A DNA stretch of 64,000 nt from an uncultured Armatimonadetes bacterium (GCA_963771575.1 CAVYTV010000002.1:126317-190316), one strand, 5' to 3'; positions 5,580 to 15,328 are shown, counted from the stretch's first letter. Program-made: numbers and translations. Notes: generated by a model not told the origin, from the letters alone.

Positions 5580-6278
5580 GTTCTTGCCACGCGCCGCACA
5601 GCGTCCGCCAGTTCCGACACGTCTGTGACCGTTTCGTCTGCCGTCAAGGGCAGGGTCGGCGGGGTTGTAGAGAGTGTACTGGATGCCGCGCTTGAAGCGG
5701 ACGGTTTTCATGCCGGCGGCTTTGGCGGGACCGATGTCGTTGTCGGGGCGGTCGCCGACGAAAATGGCTTCGCTGGGCATGATGCGTGCCTGTTCCAGAC
5801 CGGCGCGGAAGATGGCGGGGTCGGGCTTGAACAGGTGAACGATCTCGCTGATAATCACCACGTCAAAGAGGCCGCCGATGCCGTAATCGGCGATGGCCTG
5901 CGCGACAGGCGGGTGCTGGTTGGCGATGATGCCCAGGTGGAAGTCGGCTTTCAGGTCCTGCAAGACGGGCGTGATGCCGTCCAGCAACTGGCCGAACGGG
6001 CGGGGCTTACGCATTTGCTGGTATACGTCCCGCGCCTCGTGCCATAAGACTTCGGTCTCGGACTCGTTGACGCAGTAGGCGGCCAGCGTCCCCTTAATGG
6101 CGGCTTCCGGGTTCGGCCCCTGTGCAGTGAGCATTTTTCGGGTGGCATTGAAATCGTCCCACAAAACGTCTTTGCCGTGCGCCCGCAGGGTCAGCAGGAG
6201 GTCATGGAACAGCCACTGATGCTGGGCGTTCTCGTCAAACAGCACGTCGCCGATGTCAAAAAAGATGAATTTGATCAT
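5576..6278 (-). CDS. HAD-superfamily hydrolase (subfamily IA); apparent frameshift near 5645
   Basis: Motif I FFDIGDVL, motif III FKPDP, motif IV FVGDRPDNDI. After ..NPADPALD the alternative frame reads ADETVTDVSELADAVRRVART and then stops at 5576-5578. Confidence 0.7.
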
Positions 6279-7461: not shown

Positions 7462-7800
7462 ATGGCAGCAGATGAGAAAGTAAAATTTGAAGCCTCCGGC
7501 GGAAACGTCTTCGCCGACTTCGGCATCCCGGACGCCGATGAGCATTTGGTGAAAGCGGATCTGGCCTTCCGCATCCGTCAGGCGCTTCAAGAGCGCGCCC
7601 TGACCCAGACCGAAGCCGCCGACCTGCTCGGAACCAGTCAGGCCCGGATTTCGGAACTTTACCATGGCAAAGTAGCCCAGATGACCTATGACCGCCTGCT
7701 GGGCTGGCTGAACGCTTTGGGAAAAGACGTGCAAATTACGGTTCTCACCAGCAGCCGTAACGACCAGAGCAGGCGCGGCAGGACGCTGGTCAGCGCGTAA
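7462..7800 (+). CDS. XRE-family HTH antitoxin (HigA-2-like)
   Basis: GGNVFADFGIPDADEHLVKADLAFRI..LTQTEAADLLGTSQARISELYHGK..RLLGWLNALG. Confidence 0.8.
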   Translation: MAADEKVKFEASGGNVFADFGIPDADEHLVKADLAFRIRQALQERALTQTEAADLLGTSQARISELYHGKVAQMTYDRLLGWLNALGKDVQITVLTSSRNDQSRRGRTLVSA

Positions 7801-7818
7801 CTTTATGCCTCGCACCGA

Positions 7819-7935
7819 GCCATCGCCCTTGTGGACAAAGACGGCATCATTCGCGACCTCCAGACGGTCCCCGAAGTGGCAAGCGAACCCGATTACGACG
7901 CCGTCCTCGCCACCGCGCGGGAATTTGGGGGCATA
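7819..7935 (+). pseudogene. Duplicated 3' fragment of tpx (last ~38 codons)
   Basis: Translates AIALVDKDGIIRDLQTVPEVASEPDYDAVLATAREFGG, compared with the intact tpx tail AIYLVDKDGIIRYIQTVPEVASEPDYDAVLAAARELVGA. The DNA aligns over about 100 nt with scattered substitutions. Confidence 0.8.
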
Positions 7936-8070
7936 AGAGAAACCGATGACACGGGGCTGAAGGTTTTATTGGGGTAACCCCCGTGCTTTAGAAGGGCGAA
8001 TCCCCGCCTACGCGGGCATAAGAAAAACTGGAAATCCTCGCCCGCGTCGGCGGGAGATTGCATTTCTAAA

Positions 8071-8099
8071 GCCCTGCCGTTTAGGGCAGGGCTGTTTTT
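8071..8099 (+). terminator. Intrinsic terminator
   Basis: Stem gccctgcc / ggcagggc followed by tgttttt. Confidence 0.6.
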
Positions 8100-9091
8100 C
8101 ACGTCTGAGTCGGCGGGGGCGGCCAGACGCCGCCATCGGCCATGCCTTCAGCGGGAATTGCGGTCTGGGCGTGGCGCGGGAGGGATTTGGGGCCGGTGAC
8201 AATCCGCGTCAGGTGGTACAGGTTCTGGAAGAAATAAACCGGCGTCAGCACCAGGCCGACGTAGCCCCACCAGCCGCAGACCAGCATGACGCTGTTGAAG
8301 CCGGCGCTGATTTTCCAGGCGCAGGGAACGCAGAAATTGCCTTCTTTGCGGGCCGTGAACCGAATGTAGAGCAAACTGATGTTTCGCAGGAACTTGCCAT
8401 AGGCTGTCGGCACAGTCGCCGAGCCGCAGCCGGCGCAGGGGGCCAGATCCGGCTCGGCCACGGTTTCCAGGTCAAACGAGTGGCAGTGGACGCCGATATT
8501 GTACAGCCACTGCGCGGCCTGCGCGCCGACCGCCGACCGAATGGCCTCCCGCGCGGCGAGGGCCTGCTCCGGCGCCAGCTTCATCTTTCCCACCGCTTCC
8601 GCTGCCCTTGCCGAGAGGCCTGCCTGAAGAACGTAGTCCGCCACCTGCGCGGGGGAAACGCCCGGCTGCGCCAATGCCTTGCCGCCCGTGCTGAGAACGA
8701 CGGCGCAGAAGCGGGCCGGGTCGGCGATCTGCACCGCGCATTTCCCCTCCAAAGTCGTGTAGGTCAGGCCATACGCCGCGCTCTGGGAAAGGATAGTCCG
8801 TGCGCCCCAGGGCAGCGTGCGCGGGAGGGCAGTCTGCACCAGAAAGACGGACGCCGGCAGAGGCATGATGTCGCTGGCGCCGGAGCGCGGCTTCATCTTC
8901 TGCATCAGTTGGGGCAGCGTCGCCTGGTCTATGACATGGCTGCCGGGCGGCAGGATGTCAAATGCCTTGCCGTCTTTGACCAGCACGCCGGCATAGCCGG
9001 GCGGGATGTCCAGCCGGGAGCCGAGCAGGAGGCCGCTGGCCGCCGGATGAAGCTGAAGAAGCGCGTCAGTGTCGCGTATCGCAAAGTCCAT
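8099..9091 (-). CDS. Membrane protein with an SPFH/YdjI-like N-terminal domain and a C-terminal CxxC..CxxC zinc-ribbon plus TM segment
   Basis: MDFAIRDTDALLQLHP..IPPGYAGVLVKDGKAFDILPPGSH..; CAGCGS..CVPCAW followed by the hydrophobic SVMLVCGWWGYVGLVLTPVYFF. Start chosen at the internal MDFAIRD. Confidence 0.5.
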   Translation of the reverse strand: MDFAIRDTDALLQLHPAASGLLLGSRLDIPPGYAGVLVKDGKAFDILPPGSHVIDQATLPQLMQKMKPRSGASDIMPLPASVFLVQTALPRTLPWGARTILSQSAAYGLTYTTLEGKCAVQIADPARFCAVVLSTGGKALAQPGVSPAQVADYVLQAGLSARAAEAVGKMKLAPEQALAAREAIRSAVGAQAAQWLYNIGVHCHSFDLETVAEPDLAPCAGCGSATVPTAYGKFLRNISLLYIRFTARKEGNFCVPCAWKISAGFNSVMLVCGWWGYVGLVLTPVYFFQNLYHLTRIVTGPKSLPRHAQTAIPAEGMADGGVWPPPPTQT

Positions 9092-9164
9092 AGGTGTATT
9101 ATAAGGCAAATGTCCGCCCGCCGTCAAGGGCGATTTTCGGCAATGGCGAACGGCAAAATCGCGC

Positions 9165-9193
9165 TTGCCACAACAAACGATTCGCGGTATAAT
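9165..9193 (+). promoter_or_regulatory. Candidate dnaA promoter
   Basis: TTGCCA, 17 nt, TATAAT. Confidence 0.45.
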
Positions 9194-9348
9194 GGACGGC
9201 AACGAGGCGGCGATTTCGTACCCGGAATTGGCCGCCTTCTTTTGTTGCCAGGCACTTTGGCTTTGCCAAGTTCTTTGCCCAGGCGTCTCCAGGAAACCCG
9301 TGAGCAGCCACCCAACGTCCGACGACAACTCAAAAGACCCGCGCCCGG

Positions 9349-12147
9349 ATGCCTTCCAGGATCAGCAGTTGGAGCTGGGCGAAGAGGAAAGCCTCACCGC
9401 CCTGCGCCGGGCCTGGGAACGGGACCCTGCGCGCCCTGGCTGGAACGCTAAACAAGCAGACGATTGACAACTGGCTGCGCCCGCTCAAGCCGCTGTCCTA
9501 CAGCCCCCCGATTGTTGTCCTGGGCGCCCCGTCGTCGTTTGCCCGCGAGTTCGCCGAAAAAAAGTACGCGCAGCCGCTGGCCCAGCTTCTGGCACAGTAT
9601 CTGGACATTCCGAGCGTGCAGGTGCGCTTCGTCATTTCCACGCCGGATGTCCAGCCCCTGCTCGGCGAAAAGCCCCTGCCCTTGCAGCAGGCCGCCTCCC
9701 CCCTAGCCGGCCCACGTCACACCGCGCCGCCCGTGCCTTCGCCGTCCAACGAGTTGGCGCTGCCGGTTCTCGCGTCGCAGACCACGCTGCCGCTGGCCCC
9801 GGACAGCAGCGTCAACGGCAGCATAGACGGCAGCGGACGCGCCAGCCGCAACCCGTTCACGCTGGAACTGTCCGCCTCGCCCCTCAACGCCCGCTACACC
9901 TTTGACAACTTCGTCGTCGGCAAGTCCAACCGTCTCGCCCAGGCCGGAGCGGTCCACGTCGCCGAAGCGCCCGGTAAGATGTACAATCCCCTGTTTTTGT
10001 ACGGATCGCCAGGTTTGGGAAAGTGTGTCGCCGCCTCCGAGTATCTGCATTTGGCCGACGGCCGCCGCGTCCAGGCCGGGGAATTGATCGGCACAGAGTT
10101 TTCCCTGCTCACCCTCGCCAAAGAGGAACTGCGCGCGGTTCCGGCACGGGCGGAGTTTAACGCCATTGAGCCGGTCTTCGCGATCCAGACGGAAAGTGGT
10201 CGTCGGATCGTCCGAAATCGGCAGCATCCGCTCTGGGCAGCCAATGGGGTTGAGCGGTGGGGCAAAAAGTACGATCTCATCCATGTTCGCGGCTGGAGAC
10301 CACTGGGCGAACTTCAGCCAGGCGATCTGGTCGCCGTGCCGGAGAGGCTTCCTGCCTTCGGCGATCCCGTTCCGCTTCCAGAGCATGAGATTAAGCTGTT
10401 AGCCTATCTGATTGGTGACGGCGGATTTACGCAGCCCTGTGTTCGCTTCAGCCAGCAGGATAATCTACAGCTTGCCGAGTTCAAGGAGTGCGTCACCCTG
10501 ACAAACTGCCGCATGGTTCAGCATAACAAATACGACTGGCGAATTATCGGTAAGCGAGGCCGGGTGGCACATGGCAAGGACAGCCGTAATGATGTCATGA
10601 ATCTTCTGCGAAGGCATGAGTTGATGCTGACGCATTCGCGGGACAAACGCATTCCTTCAGCCATATTCCGGCTGCCCCGGGAGCAGTTGTGCCTGTTCTT
10701 ATCACGCCTGTATGCGACCGATGGCTGGGCTTCCTGCGGCCCGGAGCGGCAGATCGGCAAGCGGCTTCCGCGTACTGAAATCGGCTTCTGCTCGGCTTCG
10801 GAAGGTCTTGTTAGGGACTTGCAGGAGTTACTGCTGAAGCTTGGGATCATGGGGCATATTTCGCGCAAGGCCAAAGTCAACGCCTGGACCATTGCCATTC
10901 ATGCCGCCTCCGAGGTCACCAAATTCGCGGCTATGGTGGGCATCTTCGGCAAGGAAGACGCCGTGGAGCGCGTTCGGCAGGTTGCGGAAAAAGCAAAACA
11001 GAATCTTCCTAATCGCGGGCTTTGGCGGCATCGGAACGCGCCGACGGGGATGCGCTGGGAAAAAGTGGTTTCGGTAGCGCCGGCGGGCATGGAGCCAACG
11101 GTTGCCATTGAAGTGCCGGAGTATCAGACATTTCTGACGACATTCTGGGAGCATAACACGCACCTTATGCACGCCATCGGGCATCAGATACGGCTGGCGA
11201 TGCCGCAGGCGCGGGTGGCATATGTCAGCGGGGAGACGTTCACCAATCATTATGTGGCGGCGATCCGGGACAAGCGGACGGAAGATTTTCGGCGGGCGTA
11301 TCGGAACGTAGATGTCTGGCTGGTGGATGATATTCAAACGCTGGCCTCCAAAGAGCAGACCAAAGAAGAGTTTTTTCACACGTTCAACGCCCTGCATCAG
11401 ATGAACAAGCAGATTGTCCTGAGCAGTGACCGCAGCCCGCGCGAACTGCGGGCGATGGATGAGCGCCTCTGGTCGCGCTTTGAGTGCGGCCTGGTCGCGG
11501 ACATCGCGCCGCCGGAACTGGAAATGCGCGAGGCCATCCTGCAAAAGAAAGCCATTTTGGAAAGCATGCTGATTTCCGACGAAGTCATCGCGTTCATGGC
11601 AAATTTGATCCAAAGCAACATTCGCGCTCTGGAAGGCGCACTGATCAAGCTGATGGCCTATGCTTCACTCACCCGCAGCCCGGTCACCAAGCAGCTTGCT
11701 TCCGACGTTCTGAGCGGCTACTTTGTGGATCGGCCCCCGCCGCGCGAGCCGGTGTCCGCCCACCCGGAAGACCATGCCAGGCCGGCCCTTCCTGCGTTGA
11801 CGGCGCCGGCGTCCCCGGTCGGCCCGGCAGGCCATGCCGTGGATCAAATTATTGCGGCAGTGGCCCATCAGACCGGCGTGGAGCTGGCGTTGATTCTGGC
11901 CGGCGGCGGGCGCAGCAACCGGGCCAATCGGCTGCATGGCGACGCGGGATTCGCGCGTCAGGTCGCGATGTACCTGGCCAAGGAGATGGGCAGCGTGCCG
12001 CTGACCACGCTGGCGGCGACATTTGGCCTGAAGAGTCACACCGCGGTTGTGCATGCCCACGCGCGGCTGGCGAAAGAAATTGAGGATGACCCGCAGATTC
12101 TATCTTTGATCAGCAAGATTCGGCAGGAAATTGAGCGTGGCGGCTAA
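9349..12147 (+). CDS. dnaA: Chromosomal replication initiator DnaA, intein-containing. The true start may be GTG 9300, with a +1 indel near 9420.
   Basis: N-terminus LNKQTIDNWLRPLKPL; AAA+ core FDNFVVGKSNRLA..LFLYGSPGLGK[intein]THLMHAIGH..VWLVDDIQ..NKQIVLSSDR..SRFECGLVADI; domain IV ARQVAMYLAKE..FGLKSHTAVVHAH. Confidence 0.92.
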   Translation: MPSRISSWSWAKRKASPPCAGPGNGTLRALAGTLNKQTIDNWLRPLKPLSYSPPIVVLGAPSSFAREFAEKKYAQPLAQLLAQYLDIPSVQVRFVISTPDVQPLLGEKPLPLQQAASPLAGPRHTAPPVPSPSNELALPVLASQTTLPLAPDSSVNGSIDGSGRASRNPFTLELSASPLNARYTFDNFVVGKSNRLAQAGAVHVAEAPGKMYNPLFLYGSPGLGKCVAASEYLHLADGRRVQAGELIGTEFSLLTLAKEELRAVPARAEFNAIEPVFAIQTESGRRIVRNRQHPLWAANGVERWGKKYDLIHVRGWRPLGELQPGDLVAVPERLPAFGDPVPLPEHEIKLLAYLIGDGGFTQPCVRFSQQDNLQLAEFKECVTLTNCRMVQHNKYDWRIIGKRGRVAHGKDSRNDVMNLLRRHELMLTHSRDKRIPSAIFRLPREQLCLFLSRLYATDGWASCGPERQIGKRLPRTEIGFCSASEGLVRDLQELLLKLGIMGHISRKAKVNAWTIAIHAASEVTKFAAMVGIFGKEDAVERVRQVAEKAKQNLPNRGLWRHRNAPTGMRWEKVVSVAPAGMEPTVAIEVPEYQTFLTTFWEHNTHLMHAIGHQIRLAMPQARVAYVSGETFTNHYVAAIRDKRTEDFRRAYRNVDVWLVDDIQTLASKEQTKEEFFHTFNALHQMNKQIVLSSDRSPRELRAMDERLWSRFECGLVADIAPPELEMREAILQKKAILESMLISDEVIAFMANLIQSNIRALEGALIKLMAYASLTRSPVTKQLASDVLSGYFVDRPPPREPVSAHPEDHARPALPALTAPASPVGPAGHAVDQIIAAVAHQTGVELALILAGGGRSNRANRLHGDAGFARQVAMYLAKEMGSVPLTTLAATFGLKSHTAVVHAHARLAKEIEDDPQILSLISKIRQEIERGG
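10024..11157 (+). mobile_element. Class 1 intein with a LAGLIDADG homing endonuclease, inserted in the DnaA P-loop (GLGK | THL)
   Basis: Starts with Cys (CVAASEYLHLADGRRV). Block-B-like VRNRQHPLW. LAGLIDADG motifs LLAYLIGDGGF and LSRLYATDGWAS. Ends VAIEVPEYQTFLTTFWEHN with a +1 Thr. 1134 nt, in frame. Confidence 0.85.
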
Positions 12148-12535
12148 TGTCACAGGTTGTGTCACAGGGGGTGTGACACTGTGACACAAGTGTGACATAA
12201 GAGTCGTGTGACTCAACTGTGACTCTGTTGTGACTCAGCGTGACTCAAATGCCCTGTGTTGTGACTCAACGGTTTGGCTTGAGTCACAGAGTCACAAATC
12301 GCGCCTTGAGTCACGGCTGAGTCACAGGCGTTTGTGACTCAAGCGTGACTCTGCGAATCTACCGATTCTGAGACGAGTCTGCAAAGATGCTTCCGTGAAA
12401 GAAAGCGTTTCGGGACCAAAACACGGCGATTCGCGCTGCCCGGATTTCTTGAGTCACAGGAGTCACCGTTGAGTCACACCCCTACTACTACTACCACTAA
12501 GAATCTGAATCTTATCTAAGGGTATAAGACTCTTG
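12148..12535. promoter_or_regulatory. Putative oriC: a cluster of 19 GTGAC-core boxes (consensus TGTGACTCA), then a GC cluster, a TAG-trio array and an AT-rich stretch
   Basis: GTGAC/GTCAC cores at 12149, 12161, 12173, 12181, 12192, 12208, 12219, 12230, 12240, 12261, 12283, 12291, 12310, 12321, 12334, 12345, 12453, 12462, 12473. The sequence ttgagtcaca-cccc-tactactactaccactaagaatctgaatcttatc spans 12469-12516. Confidence 0.75.
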
Positions 12536-12576
12536 CACAGGGCAAAGCGAATCTCTTCAGGGCAGTCTGTCACATC

Positions 12577-13707
12577 ATGCATGTCACTTCTTTGAAACTG
12601 GAAAACTTTCGGAATTATGGGACTCTGTGCATTGAGCCGGGAGAGGGATTAAACATCTTTGTCGGGCGCAATGCTCAGGGCAAAAGCAATCTGCTGGAAA
12701 GCCTGTACATTCTGGCGACCAGCAAATCCGCGCGGGCGGGCAAAGATACGGAGCTGATCCGATTTGAGCAGGCGGCAACGCGCATTACGGCGGACGTGAT
12801 CCGGGAAAAGAACAGCGACATTGAGATTGAGATGGCCCTGTCGCAGACCGAAAAGAAAGTCGCTCGAATCAACGGCGTCAAGCACACGCGCCTGGCAGAA
12901 GTCATCGGACAGTTGAACGCCGTGTTGTTTGACAGCGGCGATTTGGAGATCATCCGGGGTGAACCCGCCGTGCGCCGGCGTTTCTTAGACCTGGAAATCT
13001 CGCAAACGTCGCCGCGCTACGTTCTGGCGCTGGGGTCTTACCGTAAGACATTGGAGCAGCGTAACCGATTGCTGCGTGATCTGCGGGATGGGCGGGTGCC
13101 GTTTTCCGCCCGTGACAGCCTGCCGGCCTGGAATGAGAGCCTGGCCCAGCATGGGGCGCGGCTGATTGAGCGCCGCCGACTCTTTTTGGAACGATTGGCC
13201 CAGCTTGCCGCGGAAACGCACCGCACGCTCAGCGATCAGCGCGACCATCTGGACGTGACGTACCTGCCGTCGTTTCCGCTGGACGGCCTCACCGAAGCCG
13301 ATGCCATTCATGCGCGCTTTCTGACAGAGTTAGCATCCGTGGCCGGGGAAGAGACGGCCCGTGGAACCACCCTCAGAGGCCCGCAGCGCGACGACATTGC
13401 GTTTCTGGTCAATGGGGCCGACTGCCGCCTGTTCGGGTCGCAGGGACAGCAGCGGACCGTCGCTCTGTCCCTGAAGCTGGCCGAGAGGCAGTTGATCGAA
13501 GAACTGGTCGGCGAGCCGCCCCTGCTGCTGCTGGACGACGTGCTTTCCGACCTGGACGATGCCCGCCGCAGCCTGCTGTTTGATCTGACCGCCCGCGCCG
13601 GCTCACAGACCTTTTTAAGCTGCACCAATCTGCGGGCCTTCTCCAAAGGCGTTCTGAAACGCGCCTGCGTTTACTCGGTCACGGCCGGGGAGGTCGCCAA
13701 ACAATGA
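12577..13707 (+). CDS. recF: DNA replication/repair protein RecF
   Basis: LKLENFRNY, Walker A GRNAQGKSNLLE, GSQGQQRT signature, LLLLDDV Walker B. Confidence 0.95.
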   Translation: MHVTSLKLENFRNYGTLCIEPGEGLNIFVGRNAQGKSNLLESLYILATSKSARAGKDTELIRFEQAATRITADVIREKNSDIEIEMALSQTEKKVARINGVKHTRLAEVIGQLNAVLFDSGDLEIIRGEPAVRRRFLDLEISQTSPRYVLALGSYRKTLEQRNRLLRDLRDGRVPFSARDSLPAWNESLAQHGARLIERRRLFLERLAQLAAETHRTLSDQRDHLDVTYLPSFPLDGLTEADAIHARFLTELASVAGEETARGTTLRGPQRDDIAFLVNGADCRLFGSQGQQRTVALSLKLAERQLIEELVGEPPLLLLDDVLSDLDDARRSLLFDLTARAGSQTFLSCTNLRAFSKGVLKRACVYSVTAGEVAKQ

Positions 13708-14720
13708 GAGGGAAGTGGTTTTTCAGCGCCGCCGCTTTCGCTTTGGTCGTTCTGTCTGTTGCGACAGGGCCTGTTTTCGCTGCGTCCGCCCCGGCCAATT
13801 CACCTTTCCTGCTTCTCAAACACCCGAATGTGTCTCTCATCGCGATTTCGCCGGACGGACGACTGCTGGCGAGCGGGAGCAGTGACGAATATATTGGGCC
13901 TGGCGAAGTCAAGGTCTGGGATGTTGCGACCGGCAGGTTACGCAAGTTCCTGTACCATGAGTACGAGGTAGATGACCTGGCCTTTTCGCCCGATAACAAG
14001 ACGCTCGCGATTGCTAGCGGCGGAGATATTCGTCTCTGGGACGTTCGGACGTGGAAATTGAAGCACCGCCTGCGGAATGACGGAGGATGGCAGTTTACCT
14101 GTTCGGTGGCATTTTCACCGGACGGAAAAACAATCGCTGGCGGAAGCGGCATGGCCGAGAATGGTGAAGCAGATGATGCATATCTCTGGGATGCCCGAAC
14201 CGGCAGACTGAAATGTGTGCTGCCTCACAGTAATGGAAAGACGAGTATTGTTTTTTCACTGAATGGTCAAACACTGGCTGGTGTAACGAGCGACGAGGCC
14301 AATGGGATTGTCAATCTCTGGAATATGCGGACTGGCCTGCTCAAAAGCGTTCACCAGCATCCCTGGGTCCAGTGCCTTGCGATTTCGCCGGACGGGAAGA
14401 CGCTGGCGACCGGGAGCAGTCACGAGATTAAAGAGGACAATTCTATTGGCGAAATCCGGCTTTGGGATATGAGCACTGGTCGTCTCCTGCGGACACTTCA
14501 GCATGAGAGTGGAATTATTTCCCTGGCATACTCGCCAGATGGCTCACTCCGAGCCAGCACCGATATGGCTGGCACGGTGCGTTTCAGCGAGTCAGCCACA
14601 GGACAGGTCAAACGGGAATTGACGGGAATAGGAGCAGGCGAGATTGCCTTTTCCCACGATGGCCGGTTTCTGGCCTGTGCCTGTGACAACGGCACAGTTC
14701 AACTGTGGGCTATGCGATGA
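13704..14720 (+). CDS. Secreted WD40-repeat protein
   Basis: Signal peptide MRGKWFFSAAAFALVVLSVATGPVFA. Repeats of the form SPDG(K/R)(T/L)LA(S/T)GS...(R/K)LWD. Confidence 0.85.
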   Translation: MRGKWFFSAAAFALVVLSVATGPVFAASAPANSPFLLLKHPNVSLIAISPDGRLLASGSSDEYIGPGEVKVWDVATGRLRKFLYHEYEVDDLAFSPDNKTLAIASGGDIRLWDVRTWKLKHRLRNDGGWQFTCSVAFSPDGKTIAGGSGMAENGEADDAYLWDARTGRLKCVLPHSNGKTSIVFSLNGQTLAGVTSDEANGIVNLWNMRTGLLKSVHQHPWVQCLAISPDGKTLATGSSHEIKEDNSIGEIRLWDMSTGRLLRTLQHESGIISLAYSPDGSLRASTDMAGTVRFSESATGQVKRELTGIGAGEIAFSHDGRFLACACDNGTVQLWAMR

Positions 14721-15328
14721 AAAAAACGCGCGGGCTGGCTCCCGCTTCCCATGCCGTAGACGGTTTCTTCCAGTCGCAGGAACTATTAGCCGCCTTGCGC
14801 CCGCATCTCGCCAAGGCCCGCTGGGCGGAGATCGTCGGTCCGCAGGTGGCGAATGTAACCCAGGTGGAAGCCGTGCGCGACGGGGTTCTGGTGGTGCGCG
14901 TCAAAAACAGCGTCTGGGCCAACGAATTGACGATGCTCAAGGACGACATGGTGCGCCGCCTCAATCTGGCGCTGGGGGGCCGTATCCTCACCGACATCCA
15001 CTTCAAGGCCAGCGGCCTCGCCAAAGTCAAAAAAGCGCCCGTCAAACCGCCCGAAGAGACACCGACCGAGCAGGAACTGGCGCGGATCGCGCTGTCCCCG
15101 GAAGCCAAGACGCGCGTGGCTGCTTCCACCCGCGCCATTGCCGACATCGCCCTGCGCGAACGAATTAGAACCGCCATGACCCGCGCCGCCCGTGTGGAAG
15201 AATGGAAACGCCGCCACGGCTGGCTCCCCTGCGCCCGCTGCCAAAGCCTCGCCGCCCCTATTCCCGACTCCGACGCACATCTTTGTCCGCTCTGTCGTTC
15301 CGGTATCCATTGGAACGCGAAAAATTAA
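14717..15328 (+). CDS. dciA: DUF721 / DciA-like protein with a C-terminal CxxC..CxxC extension
   Basis: ARWAEIVGPQVANVTQVEAVRDGVLVVRVKNSVWANELTMLKDDMVRRLN is the DUF721 pattern. The position after recF is typical. The tail reads CARCQS..CPLCRSG. The ATGA start overlaps the WD40 gene stop. Confidence 0.65.
   Translation: MKKTRGLAPASHAVDGFFQSQELLAALRPHLAKARWAEIVGPQVANVTQVEAVRDGVLVVRVKNSVWANELTMLKDDMVRRLNLALGGRILTDIHFKASGLAKVKKAPVKPPEETPTEQELARIALSPEAKTRVAASTRAIADIALRERIRTAMTRAARVEEWKRRHGWLPCARCQSLAAPIPDSDAHLCPLCRSGIHWNAKN

Follow-up and report, generated by a model that had tools for sequence, protein, structure and literature searches.

A probable chromosomal replication origin with lineage-specific DnaA boxes in an Armatimonadota bacterium related to Capsulimonas

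Where does chromosome replication start in a bacterium whose dnaA gene is followed by a dense array of short repeats that do not look like DnaA boxes? This question is raised by a 64,000-nucleotide stretch of DNA (the window) from an uncultured Armatimonadota bacterium, in which the repeats lie between the dnaA open reading frame (ORF), ending at 12147, and recF, starting at 12577. The analysis described here makes it likely that this spacer (12148 to 12576) is the chromosomal origin, oriC, of an organism related to Capsulimonas, and that it carries a lineage-specific variant of the DnaA box. The anatomy of the sequence, its conservation, the confinement of the repeats to the spacer, and the changes in the DnaA protein are direct observations, and all computational tests that were run fit, and on sequence grounds support, an oriC built from lineage-specific DnaA boxes and an unwinding module of boxes, DnaA-trios, and AT-rich DNA. 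Among the features by which an oriC with a basal unwinding system can be recognized computationally, the spacer lacks only a canonical box within 2 mismatches. For comparison, the spliced C-terminal part of the window DnaA has its best relatives among metagenome proteins and Armatimonadota, including those of loci L083 (90% identical in this part), L081 (82%, on a 4.38-Mb contig), L084 (79%), L085 (71%), L082 (Capsulimonas corticalis CCAX7_13230, 65%), and L104 (59%).

The published definition of a basal unwinding system asks for a DnaA box, no more than 16 bp of spacer, and three or more trios with a central adenine (NAN), commonly with boxes in tandem (PMC8287927). At the recF end of the spacer, three tandem boxes on the plus strand (TGAGTCACA, GGAGTCACC, and TGAGTCACA; 12450 to 12478), 9 to 11 bp apart and kept in 17 related loci, face a 3-nt spacer, CCC (12479 to 12481), and six DnaA-trios, CTA CTA CTA CTA CCA CTA (12482 to 12499), also on the plus strand, which read on the bottom strand as four 3'-GAT-5' trios, GGT, and GAT. 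Three nucleotides separate the proximal box from the first trio, and the box is oriented as TTATCCACA, the canonical box, is in Firmicute controls; five of the six trios are GAT, and relatives have three to six trios. The CTACTACTACTA run (12482 to 12493) is the sole run of four YTA in the 64 kb, with 0 expected. Beyond the trios lies a presumed AT-rich unwinding element (12500 to 12545) with conserved AAGAAT and TATAAGA blocks and GANTC at 12501, 12507, and 12528. This block may also hold the recF promoter. A sigma-70 consensus scan of the region found no promoter and only one weak terminator-like hairpin, and an Rfam scan returned sub-threshold microRNA noise, with no family that explains the region.

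The initial annotation, made from the sequence alone, had proposed a module of box, GC cluster, trios, and AT-rich DNA at this site. Boxes, trios, and AT-rich DNA are indeed conserved in relatives, the AT-rich DNA in 17 loci, and the DNA 3' of the trios, like 12482 to 12545 as a whole, is 61% A+T, compared to 39% for the window. The GC cluster is not conserved: the 3 nt between box and trios are CCC in the window, L083, and L085 but CAC, ACT, ATT, or CGA in other relatives, so that length is kept and sequence is not. Likewise, the trios were correctly assigned as TAG, or 3'-GAT-5', on the opposite strand, and only their phase needs revision, to CCC followed by CTA rather than CCCC followed by tac. 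By the default box definition (at most 2 mismatches to TTATCCACA) the module would be passed over, with 3 mismatches in TGAGTCACA; the published search program permits a species-specific motif (PMC8287927), and the box is accepted once such a motif is used.

Comparison with Firmicute origins places the variant box in register with the canonical one. Firmicute dnaA-dnaN spacers read TTATCCACA-TATCCACA-(3 to 4 nt)-CTACTACTATTACTAC-T-rich, as in L012 (TTATCCACA-TATCCACA-AGAC-CTACTACTATTACTACTA-T-rich) and L019 (...ATATCCACA-GCCC-CTACTACTATTACTAC), and the window module reads TGAGTCACA-GGAGTCACC-g-t-TGAGTCACA-CCC-CTACTACTACTACCACTA. The elements share strand, order, and orientation with those of the Firmicute origins, the distance from the 3' CACA to the first trio is 3 nt compared to 3 to 4 nt, and from CACA onward the Firmicute loci are near-identical to the window. 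The same element order, strand, and orientation characterize the Bacillus subtilis-type basal unwinding system, with its tandem boxes #6/#7 and 3'-GAT-5' trios (PMC6669920, PMC8287927). Both systems have tandem boxes, four to six central-A trios, and AT-rich DNA beyond, directly downstream of dnaA. They differ in the box itself (TGWGTCACA, not TTATCCACA), in the 3-nt spacer, which is not reliably GC-rich here, in the downstream gene, which is recF rather than dnaN, and in the helicase partner, presumably DciA rather than DnaD/DnaB/DnaI.

Because strand, order, and spacing match the Firmicute modules, TGWGTCACA can be aligned on TTATCCACA. Six of nine positions are identical, more than the TGTG half that the initial annotation had allowed. 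The relaxed Escherichia coli DnaA-box consensus is TTWTNCACA, from which TGWGTCACA departs at just two positions, 2 and 4, each time with G for T; the canonical 3' CACA and the W at position 3 are retained, with T at position 5. Against the Helicobacter pylori box, TCATTCACA, seven of nine positions match, among them the T at position 5, which H. pylori DnaA prefers (PMC5043019). Architecture, register, and DnaA domain IV changes all support the earlier suggestion that these are the DnaA boxes of this organism, but because the box has changed at two positions relative to the relaxed consensus and matches that of H. pylori at seven of nine, a "re-specified" initiator-origin pair overstates the case.

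Species-specific boxes are already known from H. pylori, Mycobacterium and Streptomyces (TTGTCCACA), cyanobacteria (TTTTCCACA), and Thermotoga maritima (AAACCTACCACC) (PMC5043019, PMC10225481), and, like these, the variant box retains a 3' CACA core while its 5' two-thirds vary. Unlike these, it has G at positions 2 and 4, and no such box was found in the literature searched. Nor did that search find a report of this motif as a DnaA box, of Capsulimonas origins, or of the recognition helix with D433S/N, T436A, and P423T/S that accompanies it here; lineage-specific boxes as such are established, and it is this box and this helix that were not found. Scans of the spacer at up to 2 mismatches gave no canonical, one cyanobacterial, and no actinobacterial match, and the genome paper on Fimbriimonas reports canonical boxes to be absent in this phylum (PMC4072686).

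Because the spacer has no canonical box at up to 2 mismatches, a default origin finder would see no boxes in it, and standard tools would miss such origins. The variant matrix, (Y)(W)GWGTCACA, now serves a little-studied phylum in which the canonical box does not allow origins to be called, and with it origin annotation could be corrected for the Capsulimonas-related Armatimonadota lineage. The trio module is kept in this phylum, beyond the sample of the published survey, although the box changed, which supports the view that box-trio geometry, rather than box sequence, is the invariant of bacterial origins.

The boxes upstream of the module form a larger array. A recount confirmed 19 GTGAC/GTCAC cores in about 330 bp (12149 to 12477), in orientation blocks of 2, 8, 4, 2, and 3. 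Cores on the minus strand are at 12149 and 12161; at 12283, 12291, 12310, and 12321; and at 12453, 12462, and 12473. Those on the plus strand are at 12173, 12181, 12192, 12208, 12219, 12230, 12240, and 12261 and at 12334 and 12345. As 9-mers in the register TGWGTCACA, 16 boxes (2 top, 8 bottom, 4 top, and 2 bottom) make up a candidate DnaA-assembly region at 12146 to 12352, and spacing inside the arrays is mostly 10 to 11 bp. Of the 11 copies of the 8-mer GTGACTCA in the window, where 1.2 are expected, 10 lie in the spacer and a single one falls in the remaining 63.5 kb; none of 100 shuffles reached 11. Allowing up to 1 mismatch, 14 of 19 matches to the 9-mer TGAGTCACA fall in the spacer.

Box subtypes are sorted along the spacer. 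The five boxes nearest dnaA (12146 to 12199) are GTGTCACA or ATGTCACA and lack GANTC, and the remaining boxes (12207 to 12478) are all of the GAGTCACA type and contain it. A similar left-end bias of GTGTCACA/ATGTCACA-type boxes is present in L083, L084, and L085, and C. corticalis has the GAGTCACA type alone. Between the assembly region and the tandem boxes, a box-free stretch (12353 to 12449) is not conserved in sequence and has GANTC at 12355, 12364, 12375, and 12428, mostly as CGANTC. A weak single box on the plus strand, TCTGTCACA (12566 to 12574), lies just 5' of recF; in its place, several relatives have a full box at a GANTC 47 to 50 nt past the proximal box. Its core is at 12569 to 12573, not at 12559 as first annotated. 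A further core that had been counted at 12583 falls in recF codons M-H-V-T, and because its recurrence in orthologues has coding reasons, it does not speak for a box there. A CRP/FNR-type dimer site (TGTGA-N6-TCACA) was considered and rejected: the boxes are mostly direct repeats at 10 to 11 bp, and there is no N6 inverted pair.

On the model of B. subtilis, DnaA would act at the spacer in a series of steps that lead to unwinding and the firing of the origin. Domain IV of DnaA would bind about 19 asymmetric boxes with the consensus (Y)(W)GWGTCACA, and the opposed arrays at 12146 to 12352 would assemble a DnaA oligomer. The tandem boxes at 12450 to 12478 would direct an ATP-DnaA oligomer onto the six bottom-strand trios at 12482 to 12499, stretching them. 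The AT-rich DNA at 12500 to 12545 would open next, as in the B. subtilis basal unwinding system, and helicase loading could be aided by the helicase operator DciA, which is encoded nearby downstream (14705 to 15328, plus strand). Opposed arrays of DnaA sites with about 11-bp periodicity are also found in E. coli oriC, where the gaps are 2 bp.

The same layout is common to 6 further dnaA/recF loci and 12 metagenome loci. Each has a box array, about 100 box-poor bp, and an end module consisting of two or three top-strand tandem boxes, exactly 3 nt, four to six CTA/TTA trios, (W)AAGAAT, AT-rich DNA, and AAGANTC. L083, L081, L084, L085, and L082 each have 11 to 22 cores in and adjoining the dnaA-recF spacer. 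With GTCAC as the search seed, 97 sites from the close loci gave the consensus YWGWGTCACA; 83 of them have the flanking G and 77 the final A, and the inner W is A in 64 and T in 32. GWGTCACR is nearly confined to the spacer in all six loci compared, with 9 to 16 copies per locus inside and 1 to 4 outside. A scan of metagenome contigs with GTCAC-N4-GAGTCACA-N3-CTANTACTA found 13 loci, of which 12 had the full layout and 1 was apparently a chance match.

When 12 modules were aligned with MAFFT, the boxes, the trios, AAGAAT, and AAGANTC proved near-invariant, and the preceding 100 bp or so could not be aligned. Judged from these sequences, the pattern is that of selected sites, not of a recently duplicated repeat. 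Synteny of dnaA, spacer, and recF, with dciA downstream and mostly directly after recF, holds in most of the fetched loci (dciA follows in L081, L082, L083, L084, L085, and L089). In L104, an extra gene lies between dnaA and the module, and the module is still upstream of recF.

Of special interest is whether the DnaA protein itself has changed where it reads the box. Base contacts are made by the basic loop (residue 399), by helix 4 (residue 423), and by helix 5 (residues 432 to 435 and 438 to 439) (PMC5043019). A HMMER alignment to the B. subtilis structure 8BTG places P423T, R432K, D433S, and T436A of the window DnaA at base-contact positions. Its recognition helix (codons at 12022 to 12060, plus strand) is FGLKSHTAVVHAH, compared to the canonical FGGRDHTTVxHA; helix 5 reads K-S-H-T-A-V-V-H instead of R-D-H-T-T-V-x-H, and T occupies the P423 position. 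The protein lacks the canonical domain IV signature ([RK]-D-H-T-T-V plus P423) and is still DnaA by Pfam. Among 76 diverse DnaA proteins, the helix was [RK]DH[TSA]T in 73 and KHHTT in 3, with neither S nor N at 433 and no A at 436 in any of them. The K at position 432 is a likeness to Epsilonproteobacteria. The K-S-H-T codons (AAG AGT CAC ACC, 12031 to 12042) themselves spell a variant box, AGAGTCACA (12032 to 12040), 107 bp before the dnaA stop, as also happens in L083 (about 7416) and L081 (about 7533); this may be a coincidence or an extra site.

Helix and basic loop define clades among the 120 best DnaA homologues. Clade A, which includes the window, has the helix FGLKSHTA[IV]VHAH and an 8-residue insertion in the basic loop (GGGRSNRAxRLHGD). 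Clade B (FGCKN[HR]TAVT[HQ]A) also has the insertion; clade C, with Capsulimonas (FGC[KR]NHSAIAHAH), and clade D (FGG[IV]SHSA[IV]SHAH) lack it. Outgroup Armatimonadota have a canonical helix (FGGRDH[ST]TV[LM]HAC) and a canonical basic loop. GWGTCACA boxes are found with clades A to C, which share the variant helix. At loci P0110 (L088), P0064 (L103), and L001, no repeats adjoin dnaA against which the link between helix and box could be checked.

The base 5' of the box varies with the basic loop. It is W in 81 of 86 sites from loci with the insertion in this (R399) loop and in 2 of 14 sites from those without it (L082 and L104; Fisher P = 5e-10). In work reported by Fujikawa in 2003, R399 is said to read the box from the minor groove over its 5' third, and it is therefore plausible that the insertion extends the site at the 5' end of the box. 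The lineage thus offers a natural specificity experiment, in which box positions 2, 4, and 5 change alongside DnaA positions 423, 432, 433, and 436 and the basic loop. The graded intermediates among relatives make the recognition code of domain IV directly testable by residue swaps.

Several observations weigh against an origin with matched boxes and initiator at this spacer. GC skew and AT skew within the window are noisy, without a clear switch. The conserved TATAAGA block could be a recF promoter instead of part of an unwinding element. Active DnaA depends on the splicing of an intein and on an apparent frameshift in dnaA being an error (both are described below). L086 and L087, of clade D, have a similar helix, but no boxes adjoin their dnaA genes and their origins were not found; near the dnaA of L086 there is neither recF nor any box.

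A further point against comes from L089, a distant Armatimonadota locus that has a near-canonical helix (FGGRDHATVVYAC) and yet no canonical boxes in its dnaA-recF spacer (7564 to 8214). That spacer is 39% G+C and contains GTTTTCAACC about eight times, GTTTTGAGTC about seven times, and longer TTGACTACTATGGGGATAGTTTTCAACC units, complex repeats among which no box-trio module could be assigned with confidence. Because a near-canonical helix is paired there with GTTTTCAACC and GTTTTGAGTC repeats, there is no simple helix-to-box code across the phylum, and the TTGAGTC element that L089 shares could belong to another factor. As a separate observation, dnaA in L086 is followed by a small PLDc_N gene and then by a duplicate dnaA 3' end encoding ...GDVSHSAVSHAHRKMVKLLNENPRVLSRVTEIKSRL (7594 to 8120), which suggests an insertion into the gene end.

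A second pattern in the spacer with possible regulatory implications is the distribution of GANTC. Two-thirds of the boxes contain GAGTC, and outside the boxes the spacer has 9 GANTC in 310 bp, compared to one every 589 bp elsewhere in the window, an enrichment of about 17-fold. Window-wide, GANTC is depleted, with 131 copies compared to 257 ± 15 in shuffles, and an observed/expected ratio of 0.42 to 0.5; the value of 0.42 is the lowest of all 16 XYNY'X' palindromes. Nearly all of 18 modules have GANTC at +22 to +28 and at +47 to +50 past the proximal box, on either side of the AT-rich element, with A, C, or G as the middle base, and where the first GANTC is lost (AAGAATTAGACTC) a new GACTC arises 5 nt further on. 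Because positions are conserved, the middle base varies, and a lost site is replaced, selection appears to act on GANTC itself, which suggests that it is a target of methylation. Enrichment at the origin extends to C. corticalis (20 sites in 325 bp; L082 7618 to 8019), L085 (7618 to 8061), and the L089 spacer. Origin copies are often CGANTC and sometimes form GAATC-N4-GATTC inverted repeats. Alternatively, GANTC could mark weak DnaA sites or, because some copies form these inverted repeats, sites of a dimeric regulator.

The pattern resembles Cori and CcrM of Caulobacter crescentus, with GANTC clustered at the origin, present inside the dnaA promoter (in the window as a GATTC at 9179 to 9183 that lies between the two hexamers, -35 and -10; of the other loci, L084 and L104 alone have a GANTC there), and depleted elsewhere. 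It differs in that the phylum is another, there are no CtrA sites, GANTC is embedded in most of the DnaA boxes themselves, and no CcrM homologue was seen in the window: a crude [DNS]PP[YFW] motif test on window ORFs of at least 150 amino acids yielded no candidate N6-adenine methylase and no DPPY-motif ORF. No SeqA-like reader was identified, and nothing on GANTC in Armatimonadota was found in the literature searched. As in E. coli oriC, a short methylatable palindrome is strongly concentrated in the origin, with copies at the border of the unwinding element too. Unlike that origin (GATC, SeqA, and GATC-initiated 13-mers), the palindrome is GANTC, and there is no trio-less 13-mer structure. 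On Vibrio chromosome 2, the sites of the initiator RctB itself carry the methylation mark.

It is conceivable, if doubtful, that the origin proposed here is gated by GANTC methylation in a similar way, with the mark on the initiator's own sites. If an orphan GANTC methyltransferase exists, hemimethylation behind the fork could change how DnaA binds or bring in a protein that sequesters the origin. An initiation timer of the Dam/SeqA or CcrM kind would then have evolved independently in Armatimonadota, and the GTGTCACA boxes adjoining dnaA would be methylation-blind anchor sites. In this sense, the pattern hints at methylation-coupled initiation beyond the Proteobacteria.

The prominence of GANTC also gives some footing to the idea that the GWGTCACA repeats are bound by a protein other than DnaA, for example a protein that regulates the origin, organizes the nucleoid, or reads methylated GANTC, with DnaA on weaker or unrecognized sites here or elsewhere. 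GANTC is enriched outside the boxes as well as in most of them, TTGAGTC repeats occur in L089 with its near-canonical helix, and binding of DnaA to the boxes is a prediction. This alternative is nonetheless improbable. One-third of the sites are GTGTCACA, without GANTC, so that the common core is GTCACA rather than GANTC, and the 3' CACA sits in canonical orientation at a near-canonical distance from the trios. The arrays are asymmetric and direct at 10 to 11 bp, not the inverted repeats expected of a dimeric regulator. The 5' flank of the box covaries with the basic-loop insertion, making two covariations with DnaA, and no candidate gene for a DNA-binding protein is conserved beside the spacer.

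Slightly less probable again is that DnaA binds the cluster outside any origin, at a titration or regulatory locus (datA/DARS-like) or at a recF/dnaA operator, with the true origin elsewhere, e.g., near dnaN. Tandem boxes followed by 3 nt, four to six GAT trios, and AT-rich DNA are not a feature of titration sites, and they are the most conserved part of the spacer; the YTA run is unique in 64 kb, and the module stays with recF and dciA across the clade. On the other side of the balance, skew is uninformative, dnaN lies outside the window, the origin genes of Fimbriimonas ginsengisoli are scattered (PMC4072686), and TATAAG in the AT-rich block could be a recF -10 element. A reading of the repeats as iterons from an integrated plasmid or a mobile element, or as nonfunctional tandem repeats, is very improbable, for although short repeats are dense and in both orientations, chromosomal synteny persists in lineages whose DnaA is as little as 59% identical, genes of mobile elements do not flank the spacer, conservation is that of individual sites and not of a homogenized array, and no Rep gene is present.

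The genes around the probable origin have features of their own. Pfam (DnaA_N, Bac_DnaA, and Bac_DnaA_C) bears out the earlier assignment of the upstream gene as dnaA (9300 to 12147, plus strand), with the orthologous N terminus at a GTG at 9300 and a long ORF at 9349 to 12147, but the gene is interrupted both by an intein and by an apparent frameshift. Comparison of frames with P0019 and P0012 puts an apparent +1 frameshift in the run CGGGACC, at about 9419 to 9425. The orthologous N terminus (VSSHP...DQQLELGEEESLTALRRAWER), in the frame of the GTG, meets a stop at 9467, and the remainder of DnaA is encoded in the +1 frame. An extra G in the G run is the likely cause, and the frameshift reflects either a real lesion or a mistake in sequencing or assembly.

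The intein (10024 to 11157, plus strand) is of the LAGLIDADG type, with 378 amino acids and two LAGLIDADG motifs, and lies in the Walker A loop (P-loop) of DnaA, between GLGK and CVAAS at its start and between FWEHN and THLMH at its end. Among the 120 best DnaA homologues, no full-length protein (364 to 576 amino acids) is long enough to contain this intein. Its nearest relatives (50 to 53% identity) are in proteins of 520 to 660 amino acids with IstB/DnaA-type ATPase domains, and two partial Armatimonadota DnaA fragments have a copy that is 76 to 78% identical. No paper on DnaA inteins was found in the literature searched.

Upstream of dnaA, a putative promoter, CTTGCC-N17-GGTATAAT (9164 to 9193, plus strand), is conserved in seven loci and is followed by a leader hairpin (9204 to 9238, plus strand), for which RNAalifold on seven loci gave 14 pairs, 3 of them with compensatory changes. 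The arms are GAGGCGGCG...CGCCGCCTYC, and the 3' arm holds a CCUCC-like stretch. Promoter and hairpin together lie at 5711 to 5775 in L083, 5906 to 5970 in L081, 5891 to 5955 in L084, 5924 to 5988 in L085, 5880 to 5944 in L082, and 3777 to 3841 in L104. Downstream of the spacer, recF (12577 to 13707, plus strand) was assigned by Pfam SMC_N and synteny. A WD40 beta-propeller gene (13704 to 14720) separates recF from dciA in the window only; in the relatives, dciA follows recF directly.

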